DNA from: Octopus vulgaris
Lineage: Eukaryota
Length of the DNA stretch: 64,000 bases
Direction of reading: 5' to 3'
Assembly: GCA_951406725.2 (NCBI GenBank)
Contig: OX597822.1
Location: 71,858,001-71,922,000, forward strand
The translations under genes were made by a program, and so were the position numbers. How positions within the stretch are numbered: position 1 is the first letter of the stretch; each line of letters opens with the position of its first letter. This document shows positions 14,005-59,465 of this stretch, in pieces. Under the pieces are notes generated by a model. It was not told the DNA's origin and did no database searches. It saw only the letters and a program-made list of their open reading frames with translations.

Positions 14005-15196
14005 CAGGGTGCATAGGATATTTGAGAACAGATTTATGTTTATATAGAAATAAAACAGATATATAGTAACAGATAACTTTAATTATCAAAAAATGCTATG
14101 AGGATAAAAATAAACCTTCTTTTCTATAATGTTATTCAATAAAGCCGCCTTCAGCTTCAACAACTGCTTCTATATGAGATCTAAATCATCTACATGCTCG
14201 AAACAAGTGGTCCTGATTCATTTTAGACATTACTCTCACTATGACAGCTTTCAACGAATCTTTGGTGTTATGGTCGTGTTCATTGACCTCTCTCTCAACA
14301 ACGCTCCACATGTAATAGTCCAATGGATAAAGATCTTGGGAATTAGGAGGCCAAATGTTAGGGGTTATGTGATCATGAAAATTTTCAGCCATCCATTCCT
14401 GTGTTACTAGAGCTATGTATGGTAGTGCAGAGTCTTACTGAAACACATATGGCCTTCCATTGCATACACTGTTTATCCAGGGCTAAACAATTATTTCCAG
14501 GACCTCTATGTAGGCGACAGAGTTAACTCTAAGGCCTTGTGGAAGGAAGTGAAGAGGCATCACATGCCCTTCATTGCTGACAATCCCTAAAACCATGACA
14601 GTTGCACGAAATTTTGTATGCGTAACACTTGGAACTTCAGAAGGGTCTACACATAACCATTTGTCATTTCTTCTGTTAACTTTTGATCTCGGGCGAAGTT
14701 TTTCTCGCTTGAGAAAAATCAAATCAAATATTTTTCTGCTGGATTTTTCAGTTTGTTTAAGAACCTTTTAGATATTATGTAGTGATTTTCTTTTACTTTT
14801 TTTGACAAATTGGCCTTTCCTCATCATATAAGATTTATATCTGATGTCTTCTTGGACAACATTTCTAACTGTTCCTTCTGACACATGGAGATCTTTAGCA
14901 ATAGATCTCATGGACTTTCTGGGATTGTAATCAATGGTCTGTTGAACTTGCTGCATAAATTCAGGTGTTCTGATGATTTCAGAGCGTTTAGAAGGCTCTT
15001 TATGCTTTGATATTGGTGATACATTTCCATCTTCTGTCTCTAGCTCCTTACAAACTTTGTAGATGAAAGATCTGGCAACTTTTAAAAATCGAGATATTTC
15101 TAAATCACTATGCTCAGTCTTTATAACCACAATAACAGCATGCCTCTTCATTTCTCGAAAAAGCTGAGGGTCTGCCATTATTATTTTCTGAAACAA
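14005..15196 (-). pseudogene. Decayed Tc1/mariner transposase of the maT (DD37D) group
   Basis: HTH region (SMRSIAKDLHVSEGTVRNVV), VMVLGIVSNEG, YVFQ*D...WPPNSQDLYPLDY with 37 residues counted between the two D; candidate terminus TA|cagggtg at 14003-14011; frameshifts and stops. Confidence 0.9.
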
Positions 15197-15454
15197 AGAT
15201 TATACAGTGAGCAAAAAATGCAGCAATGACCCAAACAGATTAAAATAACTTAATACATATACAGGTGTGCAGGGATATATAGTGATACATTACAAACAGA
15301 TAATGCAGAATGCATATAGATATAGGTCTACAGAGATATACATATAGATTAAAAGGAATATATATATACACACACACACCCATATACATACATACATACA
15401 CACACACATACATACATACACAGACATACATACATACATACATACATACATACA

Positions 15455-17395: not shown

Positions 17396-19075
17396 CATCA
17401 TCATCGTCGTTTAACATCCACTTTCCATGCTGGCATAGGCTGGACGGTTTGACTGAGGGCTTGGCAAGCCAGAAGGCTACTCCAAGCTCCAATCAGATCT
17501 GGCAAAGTTTCTACAGCTGGATGCCCTTCCTAACGCCAATTACTCCGAGAGTGTAGTGGGTGCTTTTTACGTGCCACCGGCACGGTAGTTAGTCAGGCGG
17601 TACTGGCAAGGGAGTTAGTCAGGCGGCGAGCTGGCAGAAACGTTAGCACGCCGGGCGAAATGCGTAGCCGTATTTCGTCTGCGTTACGTTCTGAGTTCAA
17701 ATTCCGCCCAGGTCGACTTTGCCTTTCATCCTTTCGGGGTCGATAAATTAAGTACCAGTTACGCACTGGGGTCGATGTAATCCACTTAATACCTATGTCT
17801 GTCCTTGTTTGTCCCCTGTGTTTAGCCCCTTGTGGGTAATAAAGAAATAGGTACTGGCAACGACCTGGCTCGAATGGTGCTTTTTACGTGCTACCGGGAC
17901 GACAGCCACTCAGGCGGCACTGGCAACGACCACGCTCGAATGCTGCTTTTTACGTGCCACCAGCACGGGACCAGTCAGGTGGCACTGGCATCAACCACGC
18001 TCGAATTGTGCCTTTTACGTGCCAGTCAGGTCTTCGCAAGCGCAGTTTATTGCCCAATGACTGACGGGTACTCTTAAATGGGCCGGCTTTGCTGCACTGA
18101 CACAAGCCACGGTTACGGTCTCACTTGGCTTGCCGGGTCTTCGCAAGCACAGCATATCTCCAATGGTCTCGGTCACTTGTCATCGCCTCAGTGAAGCCCA
18201 ACGTTCGAAGGTCGTGCTTCACCACTTCATCCCAGGTCTTCCTAGGTCTACCTCTTCCACAGGTTCCCTCTACTGCTAGGGTGTGACACTTTTTCACACA
18301 GCTGTCATCATCCATACGCAACATATGACCATACCAGCGCAGTCGTCTCTCTTGCACACCGCATTTGATGCTTCTTATGTCCAACTTTTCTCTCAGGGCG
18401 CTTACACTCTATAGTGTATGCACACTGGCATTACACATTCAGCGGAGCATACTGGCTTCATTTCTTGCAAGTATACGCATGTCCTCAGCAGTCACAGTCC
18501 ATGTTTCACTGCCATGTAGCATGGCTGTTCGCACACATGCGTCATACAGTCTACCTTTTACTCTGAGCGAGAGGCCCTTTGTCACCAGCAGAGGTAGGAA
18601 CTCTCTGAACTTTGCCCAGGCTATTCTTATTCTAGCAGCTATACTCTCAGAGCATCCACCCTCGCTATTGACTTGGTCACCTAGGTAACGGAAGCTATCA
18701 ACTACTTCTAGTTTTTCCCCTGGCATATGACGGAAGATATTTTCTGCACACTTTCAGTGTTTGTTAACATTTGCCAAACACAAAAACTATCTTCCCAGTA
18801 AGCCTTCCTTTGATATTTCTACACCTCTTATGTATCCAAACCTTACACTGGGTACATCTTATGGAGTTTCTACCTAAACCTTTTCCACAGATCGAGCAGG
18901 GCCATCTACCTGAAGGGATTTGTGATTTGTCTGCCTTCCTACTTATTAAGAATTTTGTTTTTGCTAGATTGACTCTAAGGCCCTTCGATTCTAGACCGTG
19001 CTTCAAAACATGAAACTTCTCTAGTTTTGATAGTGACTCAGCTATTAGAGCAAGGTCATCAGCATAGAGAAGCTC

Positions 19076-19078
<3 letters not shown>
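17396..19078 (-). mobile_element. 5'-truncated RTE-clade LINE (RT C-terminal half and 3' UTR)
   Basis: LLYADDLALIAES, VVDSFRYLG, RIRIAWAKFRE, RRLRWYGHMLRM, GRGRPRKTWDEVV are typical RTE ORF motifs; (ATG)n-type tail at ~17396-17410; ~57-bp tandem repeats in the 3' UTR. Confidence 0.9.
17625..17849 (+). mobile_element. SINE family A inserted in the RTE 3' UTR
   Basis: ggcgagctggcagaaacgttagcacgccgggcgaaatgc...aataaagaaata interrupts the RTE tandem unit aggc|ggtactggcaac. Confidence 0.85.
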
Positions 19079-19127
<49 letters not shown>

Positions 19128-19346
19128 TACATACATACATACATACATACATACATACATACGTACGTACGTACGTACGTACGTACGTACGTATGTACGT
19201 ATGTATGTGTATATATATATATATATATATATAAATATTTAGGACATTGTCTCGTGTGTTCTTACGAGTTTTGAGACGGTGATTATGATATGAGGGGAAT
19301 GTGATAGCTATTTCTATCAGATCGACCGACTGTGTCTGATTAGTTA

Positions 19347-24753: not shown

Positions 24754-26036
24754 GGGGTTGGACAAAATAATGGAAACATTTTGCGCCATAGCATCACAAT
24801 TTTGAAATATCTATAAAACCGTCAACAGCTTGTTTATTTTTTATGCTTTTAAATTTTATTATTAGTGTTGCTTAATATGTTTTGCTAAAATTGCTGTTTC
24901 ATTTCAGATATCACCAGAAAAAGGTAATTAAAATTCATTAAAATGACAGATCTATCGAGCTTTCAAACAGGTCAAATCGTTGGTGCTCGTTTGGCAGGCT
25001 CTAACGTAACGAAAACAGCAGAAATGTTTGGTGTATCAAGAAGTACTATCTCGAAAGTAATGACAGCTTTTGAGAAAGAAGGAAAAACCTCCTCGTCGAA
25101 ACAAAACTCCGGAAGAAAACCAAAACTTTCAGATATGGACAGTCGGAATCTTACGCGAATTCTTAGAAAGGATCACAAAAGTACAACTCCCAAAATTACT
25201 GCAGAGCTTAATGACCACCTCGAGAACCCAGTTTCCACAAAAGCTGTTCGCTGGGAGCTGCACAAAGCCGGATTTCACGGGAGGGCTGCAATCAGAAAAC
25301 CACTACTTTCAAAAACAAATGTTGCAAAGCGTTTAGAGTGGAGTAAAAACCTACAGAATTGGTCCCTAGAGCAGTGAAAGAATGTTATTTTCTCGAACGA
25401 GTAATCCTTTAACTTATCTCCGACCACCGGTCGAGTATACATGTGGAGAGAGCCAAAAGAAGCATTTGACCCAGACTGCCTTCTTCCAATTGTTAAACAT
25501 GGAGGAGGATCTGTAATGATCTAGCGGGGGGGGGGGGGCTATATCTTGGAAATATGCCGGCCCAATGGTTTCCCTTCATGTCAGAATTAATAATCAAGAC
25601 GATTTAAGTATTTTATCTGATCAAATTCATCATATGTTTGCGGAACTGTTTCCGGAGGGAAACGCAATCTTTCAGGATGATAAGGAACCAATTAACACAA
25701 CCAAAGTTGTTACTGAATGACACGAGGGACATTCTAGTGAAGTTGAACATCTTATCTAGCCACCATGGTCCCCCAAATTTCAATATTATTGAACATTTAT
25801 GGTGCATTTTAGAAAAACAAGTAAGGAGTCGATATACCCCACCATCATCACTACAAGAACTGGAGACTAATTTAGCTGAAAAATGGACAAAAATTCCTTT
25901 GAAAACAATTCAAATTTTGTCCGAGTCCATATCTTTAGAATTCAAACTGTAATTACTGCTAAAGGCGGTCCTACCCGATATTAAAATAAATTTGTTTGAA
26001 ATTTTAAGTCGTTTCCATTATTTTGTCCAACCTCTG
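24754..26036 (+). mobile_element. Near full-length decayed Tc1-family transposon
   Basis: TIR ggttggacaaaataatggaaac (24756-24777) and gtttccattattttgtccaacctctg|TA (26011-26038); ORF 24943-25377 has paired-like HTH, SGRKPKLS and RKPLLS; downstream VKHGGGSVMI, IFQDD, NIIEHLW; stops and frameshifts. Confidence 0.92.
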
Positions 26037-44075: not shown

Positions 44076-44262
44076 TTCTTTTACTTTTTTCAGTCATTTG
44101 ACTGCGGCCATGCTAGAGCACCGCCTTTAGTCGAGCAAATCTACCCCAGGACTTATTCTTTGTAAGCCTAGTACTTAGTCTATCGGTCTCTTTTGAAGAA
44201 CCGCTAAGTTACGGGGACGTAAACACACTAGCATCGGTTGTCAAGTGATGTTGTGGGGACAA

Positions 44263-44301
<39 letters not shown>

Positions 44302-44467
44302 CACAACAGGCTTCTTTCTGTTTCCGTCTACCAAATCCACTCACAAGGCTTTGGTCGGCTCGAGGCTATAGTAGAAGACACTTGCCCAAGGTGCCACGCA
44401 GTGAGACTGAACCCAGGACCATGTTGTTGGTAAGCAAGCTACTTACCACACAACCACTCCTGCGCCT
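44076..44467 (-). mobile_element. SINE family B, full length, directly downstream of tRNA-iMet
   Basis: Head aggcgcaggagtggttgtgtggtaag at 44467 (minus); tail ...gactgaaaaaagtaaaagaa ending at 44076. Confidence 0.9.
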
Positions 44468-44489
44468 AAAAACGAACAGAAAGTTCACT

Positions 44490-44561
44490 TAGCAGAGCGT
44501 AGTTTTGATCTACAGACCTCTGGGTTATGGGCCCAGCACGCTTCCACTGCGCCACTCCGCT
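44490..44561 (-). tRNA. Initiator tRNA-Met (CAT), copy 1; possibly a retro-pseudogene
   Basis: AGCGGAGTGGCGCAGTGGAAGCGTGCTGGGCCCATAACCCAGAGGTCTGTAGATCAAAACTACGCTCTGCTA: A1-U72, three G-C pairs in the anticodon stem, T-loop A54/A60 (eukaryotic initiator hallmarks); G4 gives a G-U pair; no CCA; T5 run ~18 nt downstream. Confidence 0.88.
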
Positions 44562-45270
44562 GTAAAAGTAATATTTAAAAATACAAAAGTAATGCTTTAT
44601 CTAGCAGCAAGAATAATAAAAGCTATAATCAATTTTAAAATCTAATCTCCCCCGTTTACATAAATATCAATGAATATGTTGAACTGTGTTTAATAAGTTA
44701 AAATCATATATTGAATATTTCTATATAAGTTTTCATATCTACACTCATTTACACTAGCAAATTCAAAAGAAAAGTAGGAAGAAACAACGTTAGAAATCAT
44801 TGGAAATTATTCCAGTTAAAGACGAAATCACAGTCATCCTTTTAGAAAAAAAAAAATATATATATACATAAAAGTATATAATATATAAAGTTATATATAT
44901 ATATATATATGTATATGTGTGTGTGTGTGTGTGTGTATATATAACTTTATATATTATATACTTTTATGTATATATATTTTTTTTTTCTAAAAGGATGACT
45001 GTGATTTCGTCTTTAACTGGAATAATTTCCAATGATTTCTAACGTTGTTTCTTCCTACTTTTCTTTTGAATTTGCTAGTGTAAATGAGTGTAGATATGAA
45101 AACTTATATAGAAATATTCAGTATATGATTTTAACTTATTAAACACAGTTCAACATATTCATTGATATTTATGTAAACGGGGGAGATTAGATTTTAAAAT
45201 GGATTATAGCTTTTATTATTCTTGCTGCTAGATAAAGCATTACTTTTGTATTTTTAAATATTACTTTTAC

Positions 45271-45342
45271 AGCAGAGTGGCGCAGTGGAAGCGTGCTGGG
45301 CCCATAACCCAGAGGTCTGTAGATCAAAACTACGCTCTGCTA
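45271..45342 (+). tRNA. Initiator tRNA-Met (CAT), copy 2
   Basis: AGCAGAGTGGCGCAGTGGAAGCGTGCTGGGCCCATAACCCAGAGGTCTGTAGATCAAAACTACGCTCTGCTA folds as a cloverleaf with initiator hallmarks; TTTTT at 45360-45364. Confidence 0.9.
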
Positions 45343-45396
45343 AGTGAACTTTCTGTTCGTTTTTAGGCGCAGGAGTGGTTGTGTGGTAAGTAGCTT

Positions 45397-47394
45397 TCTC
45401 ACCTCTGACCTGTTCAGACGTGTTTTTTTGCTGCTCCGGCAAATGTCACGTGTTAACGTGAAATATTGAACATTTTACGGCAACAGGTAGGACATTTTGG
45501 ATATTTTTGGAAGCATAGTGAGGTTTATTGCTTGCCGTTAATACTTTTTTGGCATTAATGTTAATTAGTGTTAACACTTTTCTGCGCGTAATAAGCTTCA
45601 CTTTGCTTCGGAAGTATTTGTTCTGCCTGTTGGCATATTTATTGTCTCCCCTTTTAGTGAGAATTGTGTGTTTTGAGAGGCATAGCCCCTCCTCAAGAAT
45701 TAATTTGTTCGCTTGGATTTACCACGGAGAACCAATTGTGCTTGGATTTACCACGGAGAACCAAGTGTGCTGCAACTGGAGTACCCTGTTTCGTGAGGAT
45801 TACCAGTTGCAGAACTGTGTTGCCATTATTTGAACTGTCTTCCTTCGTCCTTTTCTCTGCTCTGTCTTTCTGTTCTGTCATTGTGTTTTTTCTTATTGGA
45901 CTTTTGTTATGGCAAAAAAGGAGTTAACCATATGGGAGTTAACACCTCCGAAGGGTTACCTGAAGGAGCTGGAGGACAAAACCGTGGTGTTGAGGACTTA
46001 TTCAAAGTCACTCAACACCATAATGGTTTTTCCGAAAGCCACTATTATGAACGAGCTGGCAGACTATATGCCAGCCGTTAAATACATTCAACGGGGAGCC
46101 AAATACGCAACGATTTGGTTGCTGTTTGACTCCCCTAAAGCAGCTTGCAATTTCGCAAGCAAGCCCATTGAGGGCGAAGAGATTTTGTTTCTCCCAAGCT
46201 ACAAGGGAGAAAAATTAATAAGATTATGGGTCTGCGGCCTGCCACCCGGCTTTGAGCCCGAGTGGGTGGAAGATTCTATCCGACGGGGTCTGAGTGGTGG
46301 TAGCGCCAAGATCCTGAACGTAAGAATGCAGCCTGCGGCTGATTGGGAGGGGTCAAAGGCTACTTTGACTCTATGGACCCAGTCAGCCAAGAGTCTGGTT
46401 TTGCCGGACTTTTTGAGGATGGCCGGGTCCAAGTATCCGGTGATGCTTGAGGGAGCCCCCCCCCCCAAGTGTCACCTGTGTTTGGAGACCGGCCACATTA
46501 AGAAGAACTGCCCCAGGGACCAGAGTAGAATCCTGGAGAAGTTAATATCAGAGCCTCTCCCTGCCCCACCAATGGAGGGAGAGAAACAGAACGAGGAAGC
46601 GGTGGCTTCCTCAACAAGAAAACGAAAAGTGGGAAACAATGGTGACCCACTAAAAGACCCGGAAGCTACGGGAGAAAGAGTGGACCCGGCGTGTGCAACG
46701 CCGGAACCTCAACCTCCCGTGGCCCAGGGTAAAAAGAAAAAAAGAAAGAAAAGAAACGGGACGCCGCCAGCGGATTGTAACACGCAGACGGCGTCTCCCA
46801 TGTGTCCTCCGGCGGTTGTGGGGCCGGAGAAATATTATGTGGTCCTCTTCCACAAAGGAGGTACATTAGAGAATGAAATAGGTAAGATGAGGAAGAGAAA
46901 CCAATGAGAGGGACTTCGGTCCTGCATGGAGTATCCCGAGTGGCCTTCGCAGCTGGCTGCGGAGGTCCTACTCGAAAATGATATGTGCAGGATCGAGAAT
47001 TCTTTCCCGGAGGATCTCTTGCAAGTTATACCTATATGCGGGGGCCTGACGAAGAACGATTGCGTCATTAAAGCAAGAGCGTTCATCGGTCGGGTAACGT
47101 GAACCTGTATTTGGGTTATATTGTGATAGAGGTTTATTGCCTCTGGAAAAACTTTTGAAATTGTAAATTGTAAAATTTGGAATTTTTTTGAAATTTTTGA
47201 ATTTTTGTAAAATTTTGGATACTTTGTAAAATTACTGGAAAAAAAAAAACATTGTTTTAGAGAAGCGAGAGTCGGCGGGCGCTTTTTGACTTCTCCCATC
47301 ACCATCTTCATCCACCACCACCATCATCCATTAATGTCTTTGTCCAGCCCGTAGCTACTCTGTGTGCTGCCCTAGTGGTAAAATTGTTGAAATA
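45397..47394 (+). mobile_element. ORF1-only non-LTR retroelement (HAL1-like; L1/Tx1-type ORF1)
   Basis: Splits a SINE B head; 9-bp TSD aagtagctt at 45388-45396 and 47395-47403; no TIR or LTR; single ORF; ends in AATAAA overlapping the TSD. Confidence 0.8.
45909..47102 (+). CDS. ORF1/gag-like nucleic-acid-binding protein with CCHC zinc knuckle (internal TGA at 46905-46907)
   Basis: 332-aa ORF with CHLCLETGHIKKNC (C-X2-C-X4-H-X4-C), RRM-like IRLWVCGLPP and basic KKKKRKKR; the same frame continues 64 codons past the TGA to a stop at 47100-47102. Confidence 0.75.
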
Positions 47395-47535
47395 AAGTAG
47401 CTTGATTACCAACTACATGGTCCTGGGTTCAGTCTCAATGCGTGGCACCTTGGGCAAGTGTCTTCTACTATAGCCTCGAGCCGACCAAAGCCTTGTGAGT
47501 GGATTTGGTAGACGGAAACAGAAAGAAGCCTGTTG

Positions 47536-47566
<31 letters not shown>

Positions 47567-47758
47567 CTGTGTTTGTCCCCACAACATCGCTTTAAAATAA
47601 TATGTGACAATTATTCGGTAGCCAAGATAAAACTCTGATGGCCAGATAACCGAAGAGATGGTGTTGTGGATTTCCACCTCGGCATCCGAAACTCAGAATT
47701 TCCTCTATTTACATAATATTGAGGTTTCTTTCTTTCTTTTGTTATCTTACTGTTTTTA

Positions 47759-48747: not shown

Positions 48748-49655
48748 CAATTTACAGATGGGCTAAGGATAATAATATGCAGTTTAATGCTGAAAAATTC
48801 CAAGCCTAGCGCTACCAGCATCCAAAATTGAATATGGAACTTACAGGGTACACCGGTCCACAGGGAATTTCAATCCCAAAGCCTAGGTCAATGAGGGACC
48901 TGGGTATCGACATGAGTGGTGATACCTCTTTTCAAGTGCACATTACCAGTATGGCGACAAAGTTCAGGCGACTGGTTGGATGGATCCTAAGAACATTCAG
49001 AACCAGAGATAAGGAAACCATGATGGTCCTCTGGCGGACATTCGTCCTCAGCCGCCTGGATTACTGCTCACAGCTATGGTTACCCACTAGTGTGAAATTA
49101 ACAGCGGACCTTGAAGCAATCCAGAGAAGATTCACAAAGAAGATCGTCTCTTTGCAACAGCTCAGCTACTGCGAAAGGTTGAAACTGCTAAGATTCTACT
49201 CCCTGGAGAGAAGACGGGAGAGGTATGCAGTAATATATATCTGGAAGATCCTGGAAGGAATTGTGCCAAATGTTGGCATTGAAAGCTACACCAATGCCAG
49301 AACGGGACAATACTGCATAGTGCCAAATATCCCAGCAACGCCATCACGCTTCAGGACCAGTTACTGCAACATCCTGGGTTTCAAGGGCCCACAGCTTTTT
49401 AATATTCTCCCAAAGAGTCTGAGGAACTTGCACAAAGTAGATGTAGGGGTTTTTAAATCAAAGCTGGACCTCTTCCTGTCGAGAGTCCCAGATGAACCTA
49501 CTTCATGGCAAGAGGTGCAAATGAGGGTAGGTATATCAAACTCCATTCTTCACCAAGTGTCACATATTAGAGGAGGCTCTTAGTAATAACAGTGTAGCAA
49601 AACGGCGGTGCATCAGCATGGCCGCAGCTCTGAGCTGAAACTAGGAAGAAAAAAA
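48748..49655 (+). mobile_element. 5'-truncated CR1-group LINE (RT thumb/C-terminus and 3' UTR)
   Basis: QFNAEKFQ, RDLGIDMS, SRLDYCSQLW, LEAIQRRFTK, SLERRRERYAVIY; ORF 48828-49583; A-rich tail. Confidence 0.88.
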
Positions 49656-57815: not shown

Positions 57816-59149
57816 CATAAATATTGTTGGTGCTTTACATTCTTTTATGCTTTTACTTGTTTCAGTCATTTGACTGAAGCCATGCTGGAGCACTGCCTTT
57901 AGTCGAACAAATCGACCCCAGGACTTAGTCTTTGTAAGCCAAATATTTATTCTATTTTTGCCGAACCACTAAGTTACGGGAATGTAAACACACCAGCATT
58001 GGTTGTCAAACGATGGTATATGTATATATTATTTATATACGATGGGCGTCTTTCAGTTTCCGTCTACCAAATTCACTCACAAGGCTTTGGTCGGTCCGAG
58101 GCTACAGTACAAGACACTTGCCCAGGTTGCCACGAATGGGACTGAACCCAGAACCATTTTTTCAAATAATTTGCCTTCACAAATCTATAATACTGCACAA
58201 GATAACTCACAAAGATTACCAGAGTAGATATTCTAAACTTCTTTTTTGTACCAACGAATTACAGTATAATTTTTTATTAAAATTCTAAATCGCTTATTTA
58301 CTGTACCCAAAGACCGTATGAAGGCGCGTGACCTAGTGGTTAATGTATTCCATCCATATCGTGCGATCGTGATTTCGATACCCGGATCGGGCGGCGGGTT
58401 GTGTTCTTAAGTAAAATACTTCATTTCCCGAAAGGTAATGTTTATCTGCCACTTAAAATGGATGTTGTACTAGGACATAGAAAACTGCCATGTGGGGATG
58501 AGATGAGCCGGAAGGAAAGGGTTGTGACGTCAACGGTCAAGAAGCTTGACCGGAACAGGAAGGGTGGGAGATGAAGTCTGAGTCAAGCCCCCGTAAGCAC
58601 GCTGCACATCTCAGTGGAGCAGAGGAACAACGACGGCTGTTAACTCCAAAAATAACGTTTCTGTGGATGAAATGCCAGGTCACGCCTTGTATGTTTCGCG
58701 GGATTGCCGCCTCGTCGGACGACGAAGGTGGAGGAGAGAAAAAGAACGAGACTACCTCCCTGCGGAGATCACAGTGTGAGCCATCCAGCCGGGTGGATGG
58801 CAGATTTTGACTTGGGGTAAGGAGAGAAGGTGATCTTTGAGATCAGGGGGACGTCTGGGGATGAGATGAACCGAAAAGAAAGGGCTGTGACGTCAACGGA
58901 CAAGGGGCTTGACCGGAACAGGAAGGGTGATAGAAGAAGCGAGAGAAGTACAGCTGGACGGCAAAACGACGAGAAGATAGCCGAATTGTTTCTTATTTCC
59001 CAGCATAACAGTTCCCATTACAGAATGCACTGGGGTCGGTCTAATCGACTGGCCCCCTCCCAAAAAATTTCGGGCCTTGTGCCTAGAGTAGAAAAAGAAT
59101 ATGGTCAGCTCAATCTCTTATACCCAATGGAAGCTAGATTTAGCTCCGG

Positions 59150-59465
59150 TGTTATATGTTCTAGGGATCCTGAAGAAAAAAAAAGAAACCCTGGCATTAA
59201 CTGTAGAACTAGAAATGTAGTCTACAGCATAAGGTGCATAGAAGGTGCTTGTGAAGACAAGAACATGATATACATAGGTGAGACATCTAGAAGCATTTCG
59301 GAGAGACTAAATCAACATTTGAGTCAATATCACAACAAAAATCAGTCCTCTATACTCTACCAACATGCTAAAGACCAACACGGAGGCTCACTAGGTCATT
59401 TTGACATTAAAGCACTCGAAGAACCCAACACTCAGACAAGTACAAGAATACGTCCTCCTAAGTGA
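59150..59465 (+). pseudogene. Penelope-like element GIY-YIG endonuclease fragment
   Basis: NCRTRNVVYSIRC...C...IYIGETSRSISERLNQH...LYQH: the VVY-YIGET-R-H signature with the Cys/His residues typical of Penelope endonucleases. Confidence 0.85.

Follow-up and report, generated by a model that had tools for sequence, protein, structure and literature searches.

At one locus of the Octopus vulgaris genome, within a 64,000-nucleotide stretch of contig OX597822.1 (GenBank assembly GCA_951406725.2, positions 71,858,001 to 71,922,000 of the forward strand; herein the window), a high-copy repeat is split by about 2 kb of DNA that carries a zinc-knuckle reading frame and no recognizable reverse transcriptase (RT), and the question is what kind of element this is and how it came to be there. 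A first, sequence-only reading had taken it for a HAL1-like retroelement that encodes ORF1p and nothing else. The insert comprises 1,998 bp, has a G+C content of 46% (against 38% for the window) and lies within a local palindrome, on its right arm:

45397..47394 (+): inserted element, delimited by the junction repeat and by comparison with the empty site
45388..45396 (+): target-site duplication, left copy, 9 bp
47395..47403 (+): target-site duplication, right copy, 9 bp
44240..44905 (-): mirror arm of the palindrome, with the repeat uninterrupted and the empty target at 44436-44444

The duplicated 9-mer is the longest direct repeat common to both junctions (45388-45396 and 47395-47403). Once the insert is removed, the right arm and the reverse complement of the left arm are identical at 540 of 546 positions (microsatellites excluded), and the left arm, in which the repeat is uninterrupted, contains the 9-mer a single time, at 44436-44444, as expected of an empty target. 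Both ends of the insert are exact because the 9-bp duplication, the match between the arms and the single 9-mer of the left arm coincide; the sequence-only reading had proposed a 1998-bp insert with a 9-bp duplication, and a pre-insertion state preserved in the other palindrome arm, and both were recovered here. No poly(A) tail is present in this one copy, whose final AATA abuts the target duplication. Nor was a terminal inverted repeat found (165 of 300 shuffles score equally well) or a terminal direct repeat, the best direct match (equalled in 4 of 300 shuffles) being an internal word of 12-13 nt. These tests and the empty domain scans of the frames agree with the earlier claim that terminal inverted repeats, LTRs, endonuclease motifs and RT motifs are all absent. 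A target duplication and an empty site, accompanied by neither an LTR nor a terminal inverted repeat, indicate retrotransposition.

The target lies in a repeat-rich setting beside a tRNA gene:

45364..45396 (+): interrupted high-copy SINE-like repeat, 5' piece
47395..47530 (+): interrupted SINE-like repeat, 3' piece
45271..45342 (+): tRNA-Met(CAT) gene (ARAGORN, Rfam); 54 nt separate its end from the start of the insert
44490..44561 (-): tRNA-Met(CAT), mirror copy in the other palindrome arm (ARAGORN, Rfam)

About a dozen further copies or pieces of the interrupted repeat occur in the window, and its depth is very high in all sequencing runs; judging from A- and B-box motifs, we take it to be a tRNA-type SINE. 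The two tRNA-Met(CAT) genes, which we presume from their sequence to resemble initiator tRNA, score 52.7 and 50.8 bits and are the only features above threshold in Rfam; the one beside the insert had escaped the sequence-only reading. The palindrome as a whole (44240-47592) is near-perfect over ~660 bp, with a TA/TG microsatellite at its centre and arms about 1% apart; it duplicates one tRNA gene and one SINE-like repeat and is probably a recent fold-back duplication.

Between its two ends, the element is organized around one long reading frame:

45397..45908 (+): 5' UTR, 512 bp, with a 29-bp tandem pair at 45711-45768
45909..46907 (+): ORF1 as read in the window copy, 332 aa up to a premature TGA
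46905..46907 (+): in-frame stop TGA, without counterpart in the contigs listed at this site in four runs
46908..47102 (+): remainder of the ORF1 frame, 64 aa and stop, its residues without a family
47103..47394 (+): 3' UTR, 292 bp, A+T-rich, with near-repeats of 9-10 nt and no ORF2 start

The 5' UTR had been estimated at ~510 bp and measures 512 bp, with the ATG at 45909; we infer an internal Pol II promoter within it. A single frame follows, as had been claimed, but in the window copy it is split by the TGA at 46905-46907 (codon 333 of 397), which that claim left out, and therefore yields 332 aa instead of 397. The third base of this stop is a different letter in every contig listed (15, 19, 16 and 2 contigs in the four runs), so that the stop, which no listed contig carries, looks private to the window copy, and the ORF1 frame of the family probably has 397 codons. 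The frame contains a stop-free run of 357 codons, a length that none of 1000 shuffles reaches (maximum 206), and the 14 other stop-free frames of at least 50 aa gave no endonuclease, RT, integrase or transposase match. Because of its own stop, the window copy cannot supply full-length ORF1p, the RNA chaperone that the sequence-only reading had the family provide for itself. The 3' UTR, previously given as ~290 bp ending in AATAAA, is 292 bp long if the stop is read through and has no open frame of more than 47 codons, but the AATAAA (47391-47396) overlaps the target duplication, to which its last two A belong. Folding of the last 157 nt is no more stable than that of shuffled sequence (z 0.78).

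Several smaller features of the untranslated regions are recorded here in their own right. The terminal motif of the element (47376-47396) recurs at 79% identity at 47226-47249, just before an internal A11 run, and other copies include deletion variants whose rejoining points are 47241, 47286 and 47287, as if an older 3' end had lain at about 47249, with the final ~145 bp a later addition. An identical 12-nt word is found in the 5' UTR (45520-45531) and the 3' UTR (47129-47140) and may be due to chance. At +20 of the element stands the word AGACGTG (45416-45422), which is reminiscent of the downstream promoter core of insect LINE 5' ends.

The identity of the element depends largely on the protein encoded by ORF1, for which the following features were located:

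45945..46208 (+): predicted RRM 1, residues about 13-100 (La RRM, Z 8.5, rmsd 2.6, 81 aligned)
46209..46463 (+): predicted RRM 2, residues about 101-185 (Pub1 RRM, Z 7.8, rmsd 3.5, 75 aligned)
46470..46511 (+): single CCHC zinc knuckle, C188-C191-H196-C201
46731..46754 (+): basic Lys/Arg tract in a Pro/charged linker

The knuckle and the basic tract had been noticed at the outset and are both in place, the former being the only Pfam match of the protein (zf-CCHC, E 0.01, under the gathering score). Structure prediction, which the sequence-only reading had asked for, added the layout RRM-RRM then CCHC: the AlphaFold model of residues 1-215 (pLDDT 89) contains two beta-alpha-beta-beta-alpha-beta units ahead of the knuckle, beginning at residue 13 and preceded by no N-terminal coiled coil. 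RRM proteins fill the top rows of a Foldseek search with this model, and VIA-align superposes residues 13-100 on the La RRM (Z 8.5) and residues 104-185 on the Pub1 RRM (Z 7.8), scores that are middling but consistent over most of 50 rows; structures of L1 ORF1p are not among the Foldseek and VIA-align rows shown, which excludes nothing. In BFVD, the only matches below E 0.001 are RRM proteins of giant viruses, and neighbours in the ESM Atlas are eukaryotic CCHC clusters (0.91-0.93), together with one cluster of ZCCHC3 RNA-binding domains (0.91). Taken alone, the knuckle gives matches to nucleocapsids of retroviruses and Copia. Two predicted RRMs followed by a CCHC knuckle are what is expected of a LINE ORF1, and since type I ORF1p is defined by RRM and CCHC together (PMC4120745, in excerpt), the protein is predicted to be a type I LINE ORF1p resembling ZCCHC3/Tx1-type proteins.

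The nearest named family is that of the ZCCHC3 RNA-binding domains (PF23057, PF23058; Atlas 0.91, 172 of 256 features in common), and the predicted structure of one relative, P0015, is similar as well (TM 0.57). ZCCHC3 differs in being a host gene, and no member of our protein alignment (A2) is listed against PF23057 or PF23058 in the Pfam scans. Towards the C-terminus (residues 305-397), a profile built from the C-terminal segments of five relatives scores no better than shuffles (172 of 1000 as high). Those relatives (P0010, P0015, P0016, P0026 and P0028) seem to have in common a C-terminal segment of ~80 aa, which follows a long disordered linker and bears the motif F/C-x-x-D/N-V/I.

If the insert belongs to a family, related copies should be found in sequencing runs, and they are. 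At least seven of the runs listed contain no less than half of the sampled words of the element, the best share being 0.61, which corresponds to a difference of about 1.6-2.3% from the nearest copies; four coded organisms are represented among the top eight runs listed. In the four runs examined, all 30 bins of the element are covered in each. Single contigs of the 5' UTR reach a depth of 1,622-2,099 in run X1 (against 55-68 for the weakest listed pieces) and of 104-205 in run X6 (against about 7), depths that point to many copies without amounting to a copy count. Depth over the 5' UTR at least equals that over the first 120 bp of the 3' UTR. Five of the 32 listed pieces, from three of the four runs and 2-9% diverged, cross the end of the ORF into the same 3' UTR, and diverged copies thus keep this junction. 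The last 15 bp of the element are covered by contigs in all four runs, some of which extend beyond it, and no contig among those listed spans the whole element. The selection check that had been proposed as dN/dS was carried out as a count of synonymous changes: 9 of 18 listed coding differences are synonymous, compared with 23-28% expected (p 0.01-0.04). The sample is small: of 283 differences, the 40 with the best support were used, and these comprise 19 in-frame sites. An apparent rise in depth at 47379 was set aside, similar rises occurring inside the ORF where many contigs overlap. Separately, a 613-nt contig from run X16, which we guess to be RNA, fits 45432-45904, a segment preceded in the contig by 38 and followed by 99 letters without a match; it may stem from a sister subfamily whose ORF starts differently or from a different element with the same 5' UTR. 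None of the runs listed as sharing the words of the element is on record as RNA.

At the protein level, a full HMMER search returned 36 matches, 29 over the N-terminal region and seven at the knuckle only. Of the 29, we looked up 22, of which 15 are named (five from O. sinensis, five from O. bimaculoides, four from O. vulgaris and one from Argonauta hians) and seven are unnamed. The closest, at 61% identity, is an O. sinensis protein with three RefSeq accessions that lacks the first knuckle cysteine and ends at 281 aa; the others are about 18-28% identical, and their radiation is poorly resolved in a tree that kept 18 of the 29 rows. For six of the unnamed relatives the contig measures 0.6-2.2 kb, and one cluster occurs four times at 1,849-1,930 nt. 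An RT or endonuclease domain was found in none of the 29 relatives scanned, although a downstream ORF2 would be missed by protein searches because ORF1 and ORF2 occupy separate frames and most contigs of the collection are short. A profile search for relatives of 1,092-3,115 aa likewise found none (a weak search by the tool's own note), and a search near the length of the profile returned only two of its own members. One of the 29 has an integrase piece and is probably a chimeric gene model. Additionally, the O. vulgaris gene model CAI9737824 has 28 codons derived from ORF1 fused to a SAM-domain protein: its first 28 residues are 93% identical to ORF1 residues 298-325 (window 46800-46886), and the likeness ends at 46880, where a splice-donor-like site is found. 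This fusion is possibly an exonisation or a prediction artefact, and its start marks another near-identical genomic copy.

We conclude, with a probability of roughly 0.7, that the insert is one copy of an octopod family of ORF1-only non-autonomous LINEs whose members would be copied by the RT of a different LINE, probably one of the L1-Tx1 group. Tx1 is the likely clade of the element itself; because type I ORF1s occur in several LINE groups, this assignment rests on the knuckle count and the Atlas likeness, an RT tree being impossible for an element without ORF2. The family is best read as recently mobile. Candidate ORF2p partners exist, since 13 L1-Tx1 families, with 421 near-full-length insertions, have recently been active in O. 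vulgaris (PMC13282606, in excerpt). Under the proposed mechanism, a source copy would be transcribed from its own 5' UTR and its ORF1p would coat or package the element RNA; the ORF2p of an autonomous LINE partner would then be recruited and nick the target, the nicked strand, ending in TT, would pair with the terminal AA of the RNA, and priming would take place at the A-rich 3' end. Priming that starts at the beginning of this A-rich end is proposed to account for a 9-bp duplication with no tail. The window copy would later have gained private changes, including the stop at codon 333. Neither the protein nor the 3'-end pattern had a match in metagenome and viral contigs, collections in which octopus DNA is not expected. 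A bolder proposal, which we consider doubtful, is an old, self-standing octopod radiation of ~2-kb ORF1-only elements, made up of many lineages about 20-30% identical in three Octopus species and Argonauta, whose RNA-packaging ORF1p would have stayed functional under selection and which would parasitise Tx1-type RTs; the lineage of the insert would home to the heads of tRNA-type SINEs or the sides of tRNA genes.

The insert could instead be the 5' part of an autonomous Tx1-type LINE, in which case its apparent 3' UTR would be the spacer between ORF1 and ORF2 and the transcript would have been cut short at AATAAA, or a rare deletion would have removed the remainder. An AATAAA at the very end and the missing tail fit such early 3' processing, active L1-Tx1 families are present in O. 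vulgaris (PMC13282606, in excerpt), and the contigs that run past the last 15 bp can be read in the same way. However, the 292 bp after the ORF contain no open frame of more than 47 codons, and copies as much as 8-9% diverged retain this A+T-rich region. The ORF2 of L1 and Tx1 elements usually begins close to the ORF1 stop. Together with the absence of long relatives (in the weak search described above) and of RT or endonuclease domains from all 29 relatives, these observations make a truncated autonomous LINE unlikely.

Two further explanations place the origin of the insert outside the LINEs, and we regard both as considerably less probable. A processed pseudogene of a host RNA-binding gene, that is, a ZCCHC3-like ORF1 that the host had domesticated and that LINE machinery then retrocopied, would agree with the ZCCHC3-like fold and with the three RefSeq accessions of the closest protein in O. 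sinensis; but that protein has the missing cysteine and early end that a decayed copy would have, variant contigs are many and deep over the entire 5' UTR and ORF, and the family splits into many lineages, 19-28% identical to the ORF1 protein of the insert, within four octopod species, so that we think a host retrocopy very improbable. Lowest of all we rank a non-autonomous element carrying a gag-like gene and mobilized as a DNA transposon or through an LTR/DIRS-type pathway. Duplications of 9 bp occur also with Mutator-type transposons, the poly(A) tail is lacking and the knuckle alone matches nucleocapsids, yet terminal inverted and direct repeats are both absent by the shuffling tests and the model shows RRMs in place of a capsid fold.

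How, then, does an octopod ORF1-only LINE family relate to those already described? HAL1 proper has a type II ORF1p (Transposase_22) and carries a 3' poly(A) tail, and the window copy has neither. The likeness to mammalian HAL1 is that of a non-autonomous LINE derivative encoding ORF1p only, whose ORF2p must be borrowed (PMC5753468 and PMC5786205, in excerpt). The ORF1p of mammalian L1 is, however, of type II, with a coiled coil, one RRM and a CTD (PMC5203782 and PMC4120745, in excerpt), whereas the octopus protein is of type I, with two predicted RRMs and one CCHC; additionally, the octopus element is molluscan and, in the window copy, lacks poly(A). The earlier label therefore stands for the kind of element, an ORF1-only non-autonomous LINE, and not for HAL1 itself: because mammalian L1 ORF1p is of type II and the octopus protein is not, 'HAL1-like' is an analogy.

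HeT-A of Drosophila is telomeric, whereas the octopus copy is interstitial and flanked by a target duplication. Like Ag-Sponge of the mosquito, HeT-A is an ORF1-present non-autonomous LINE (PMC5786205, in excerpt), and together with HAL1 these make up an established class with origins in Jockey (HeT-A), CR1 (Ag-Sponge) and L1 (HAL1) (PMC5786205 and PMC5753468, in excerpt). Type I ORF1s are known from I, Jockey, R1, Tad1, L2, CR1 and plant L1 elements, so that HeT-A resembles the octopus element in this respect also, but the two-RRM ORF1s of Jockey, CR1 and L2 have three knuckles and the octopus protein has one (PMC4120745, in excerpt). Comparable too are the Tx1-clade LINEs, whose clade the RRM/CCHC ORF1s of non-mammalian animal L1s fit (PMC5203782, in excerpt) and which have RRM/CCHC ORF1 variants (PMC4494074 and PMC5203782, in excerpt), a layout not exclusive to Tx1 (PMC4120745, in excerpt); they differ from the octopus element in possessing an ORF2. 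A preference for repeated targets, be they transposons, snRNA genes or microsatellites, is seen in many Tx1 families (PMC4494074, in excerpt), and the octopus copy lies in a high-copy repeat, at one site in a genome where such repeats are abundant (SINEs account for 11.6% of it; PMC13282606, in excerpt). Its position in a SINE-like head, 54 nt from a tRNA gene, is suggestive, but a single site amid such abundance carries no weight.

The kind of element is thus already established, and the octopod family is one for which we found no description: none of an octopus ORF1-only element was found in the literature (Repbase, Dfam and the Zenodo consensus library lay outside the search), neither 'HAL1' nor 'ORF1' appears in the text of PMC13282606 or its one supplement, and the excerpts of PMC9115989, PMC10294476 and PMC11203168 make no mention of such an octopod family. 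Because RT-based classification misses them, ORF1-only elements are taken for unknown repeats or, in octopus, for 'uncharacterized' genes; the 15 named database proteins noted above belong to this octopod ORF1 family. A molluscan case of Tx1 type would add a fourth origin to those from L1, Jockey and CR1 (PMC5786205, in excerpt) and would support the idea that an ORF1p of its own helps an RNA to capture the ORF2p of a partner. A recently active family with sharp ends also offers a direct way to the trans-acting partner.

Other frames in the window have the appearance of mobile elements. A 257-codon frame at 48810-49583 (+) has no Pfam match and no DNA similarity to the ORF1-only element, and we take it to read like the C-terminal end of a CR1/L2-type LINE ORF2. 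The frame at 58821-59465 (+) encodes a GIY-YIG endonuclease domain (Pfam E 1.6e-06) and is likely a fragment of a Penelope-like element. Three more frames, at 14768-15199 (-), 24928-25377 (+) and 18764-19261 (-), have a mobile-element look by eye; two of them we presume to be Tc1/mariner transposase N-termini and one an RT-end fragment.
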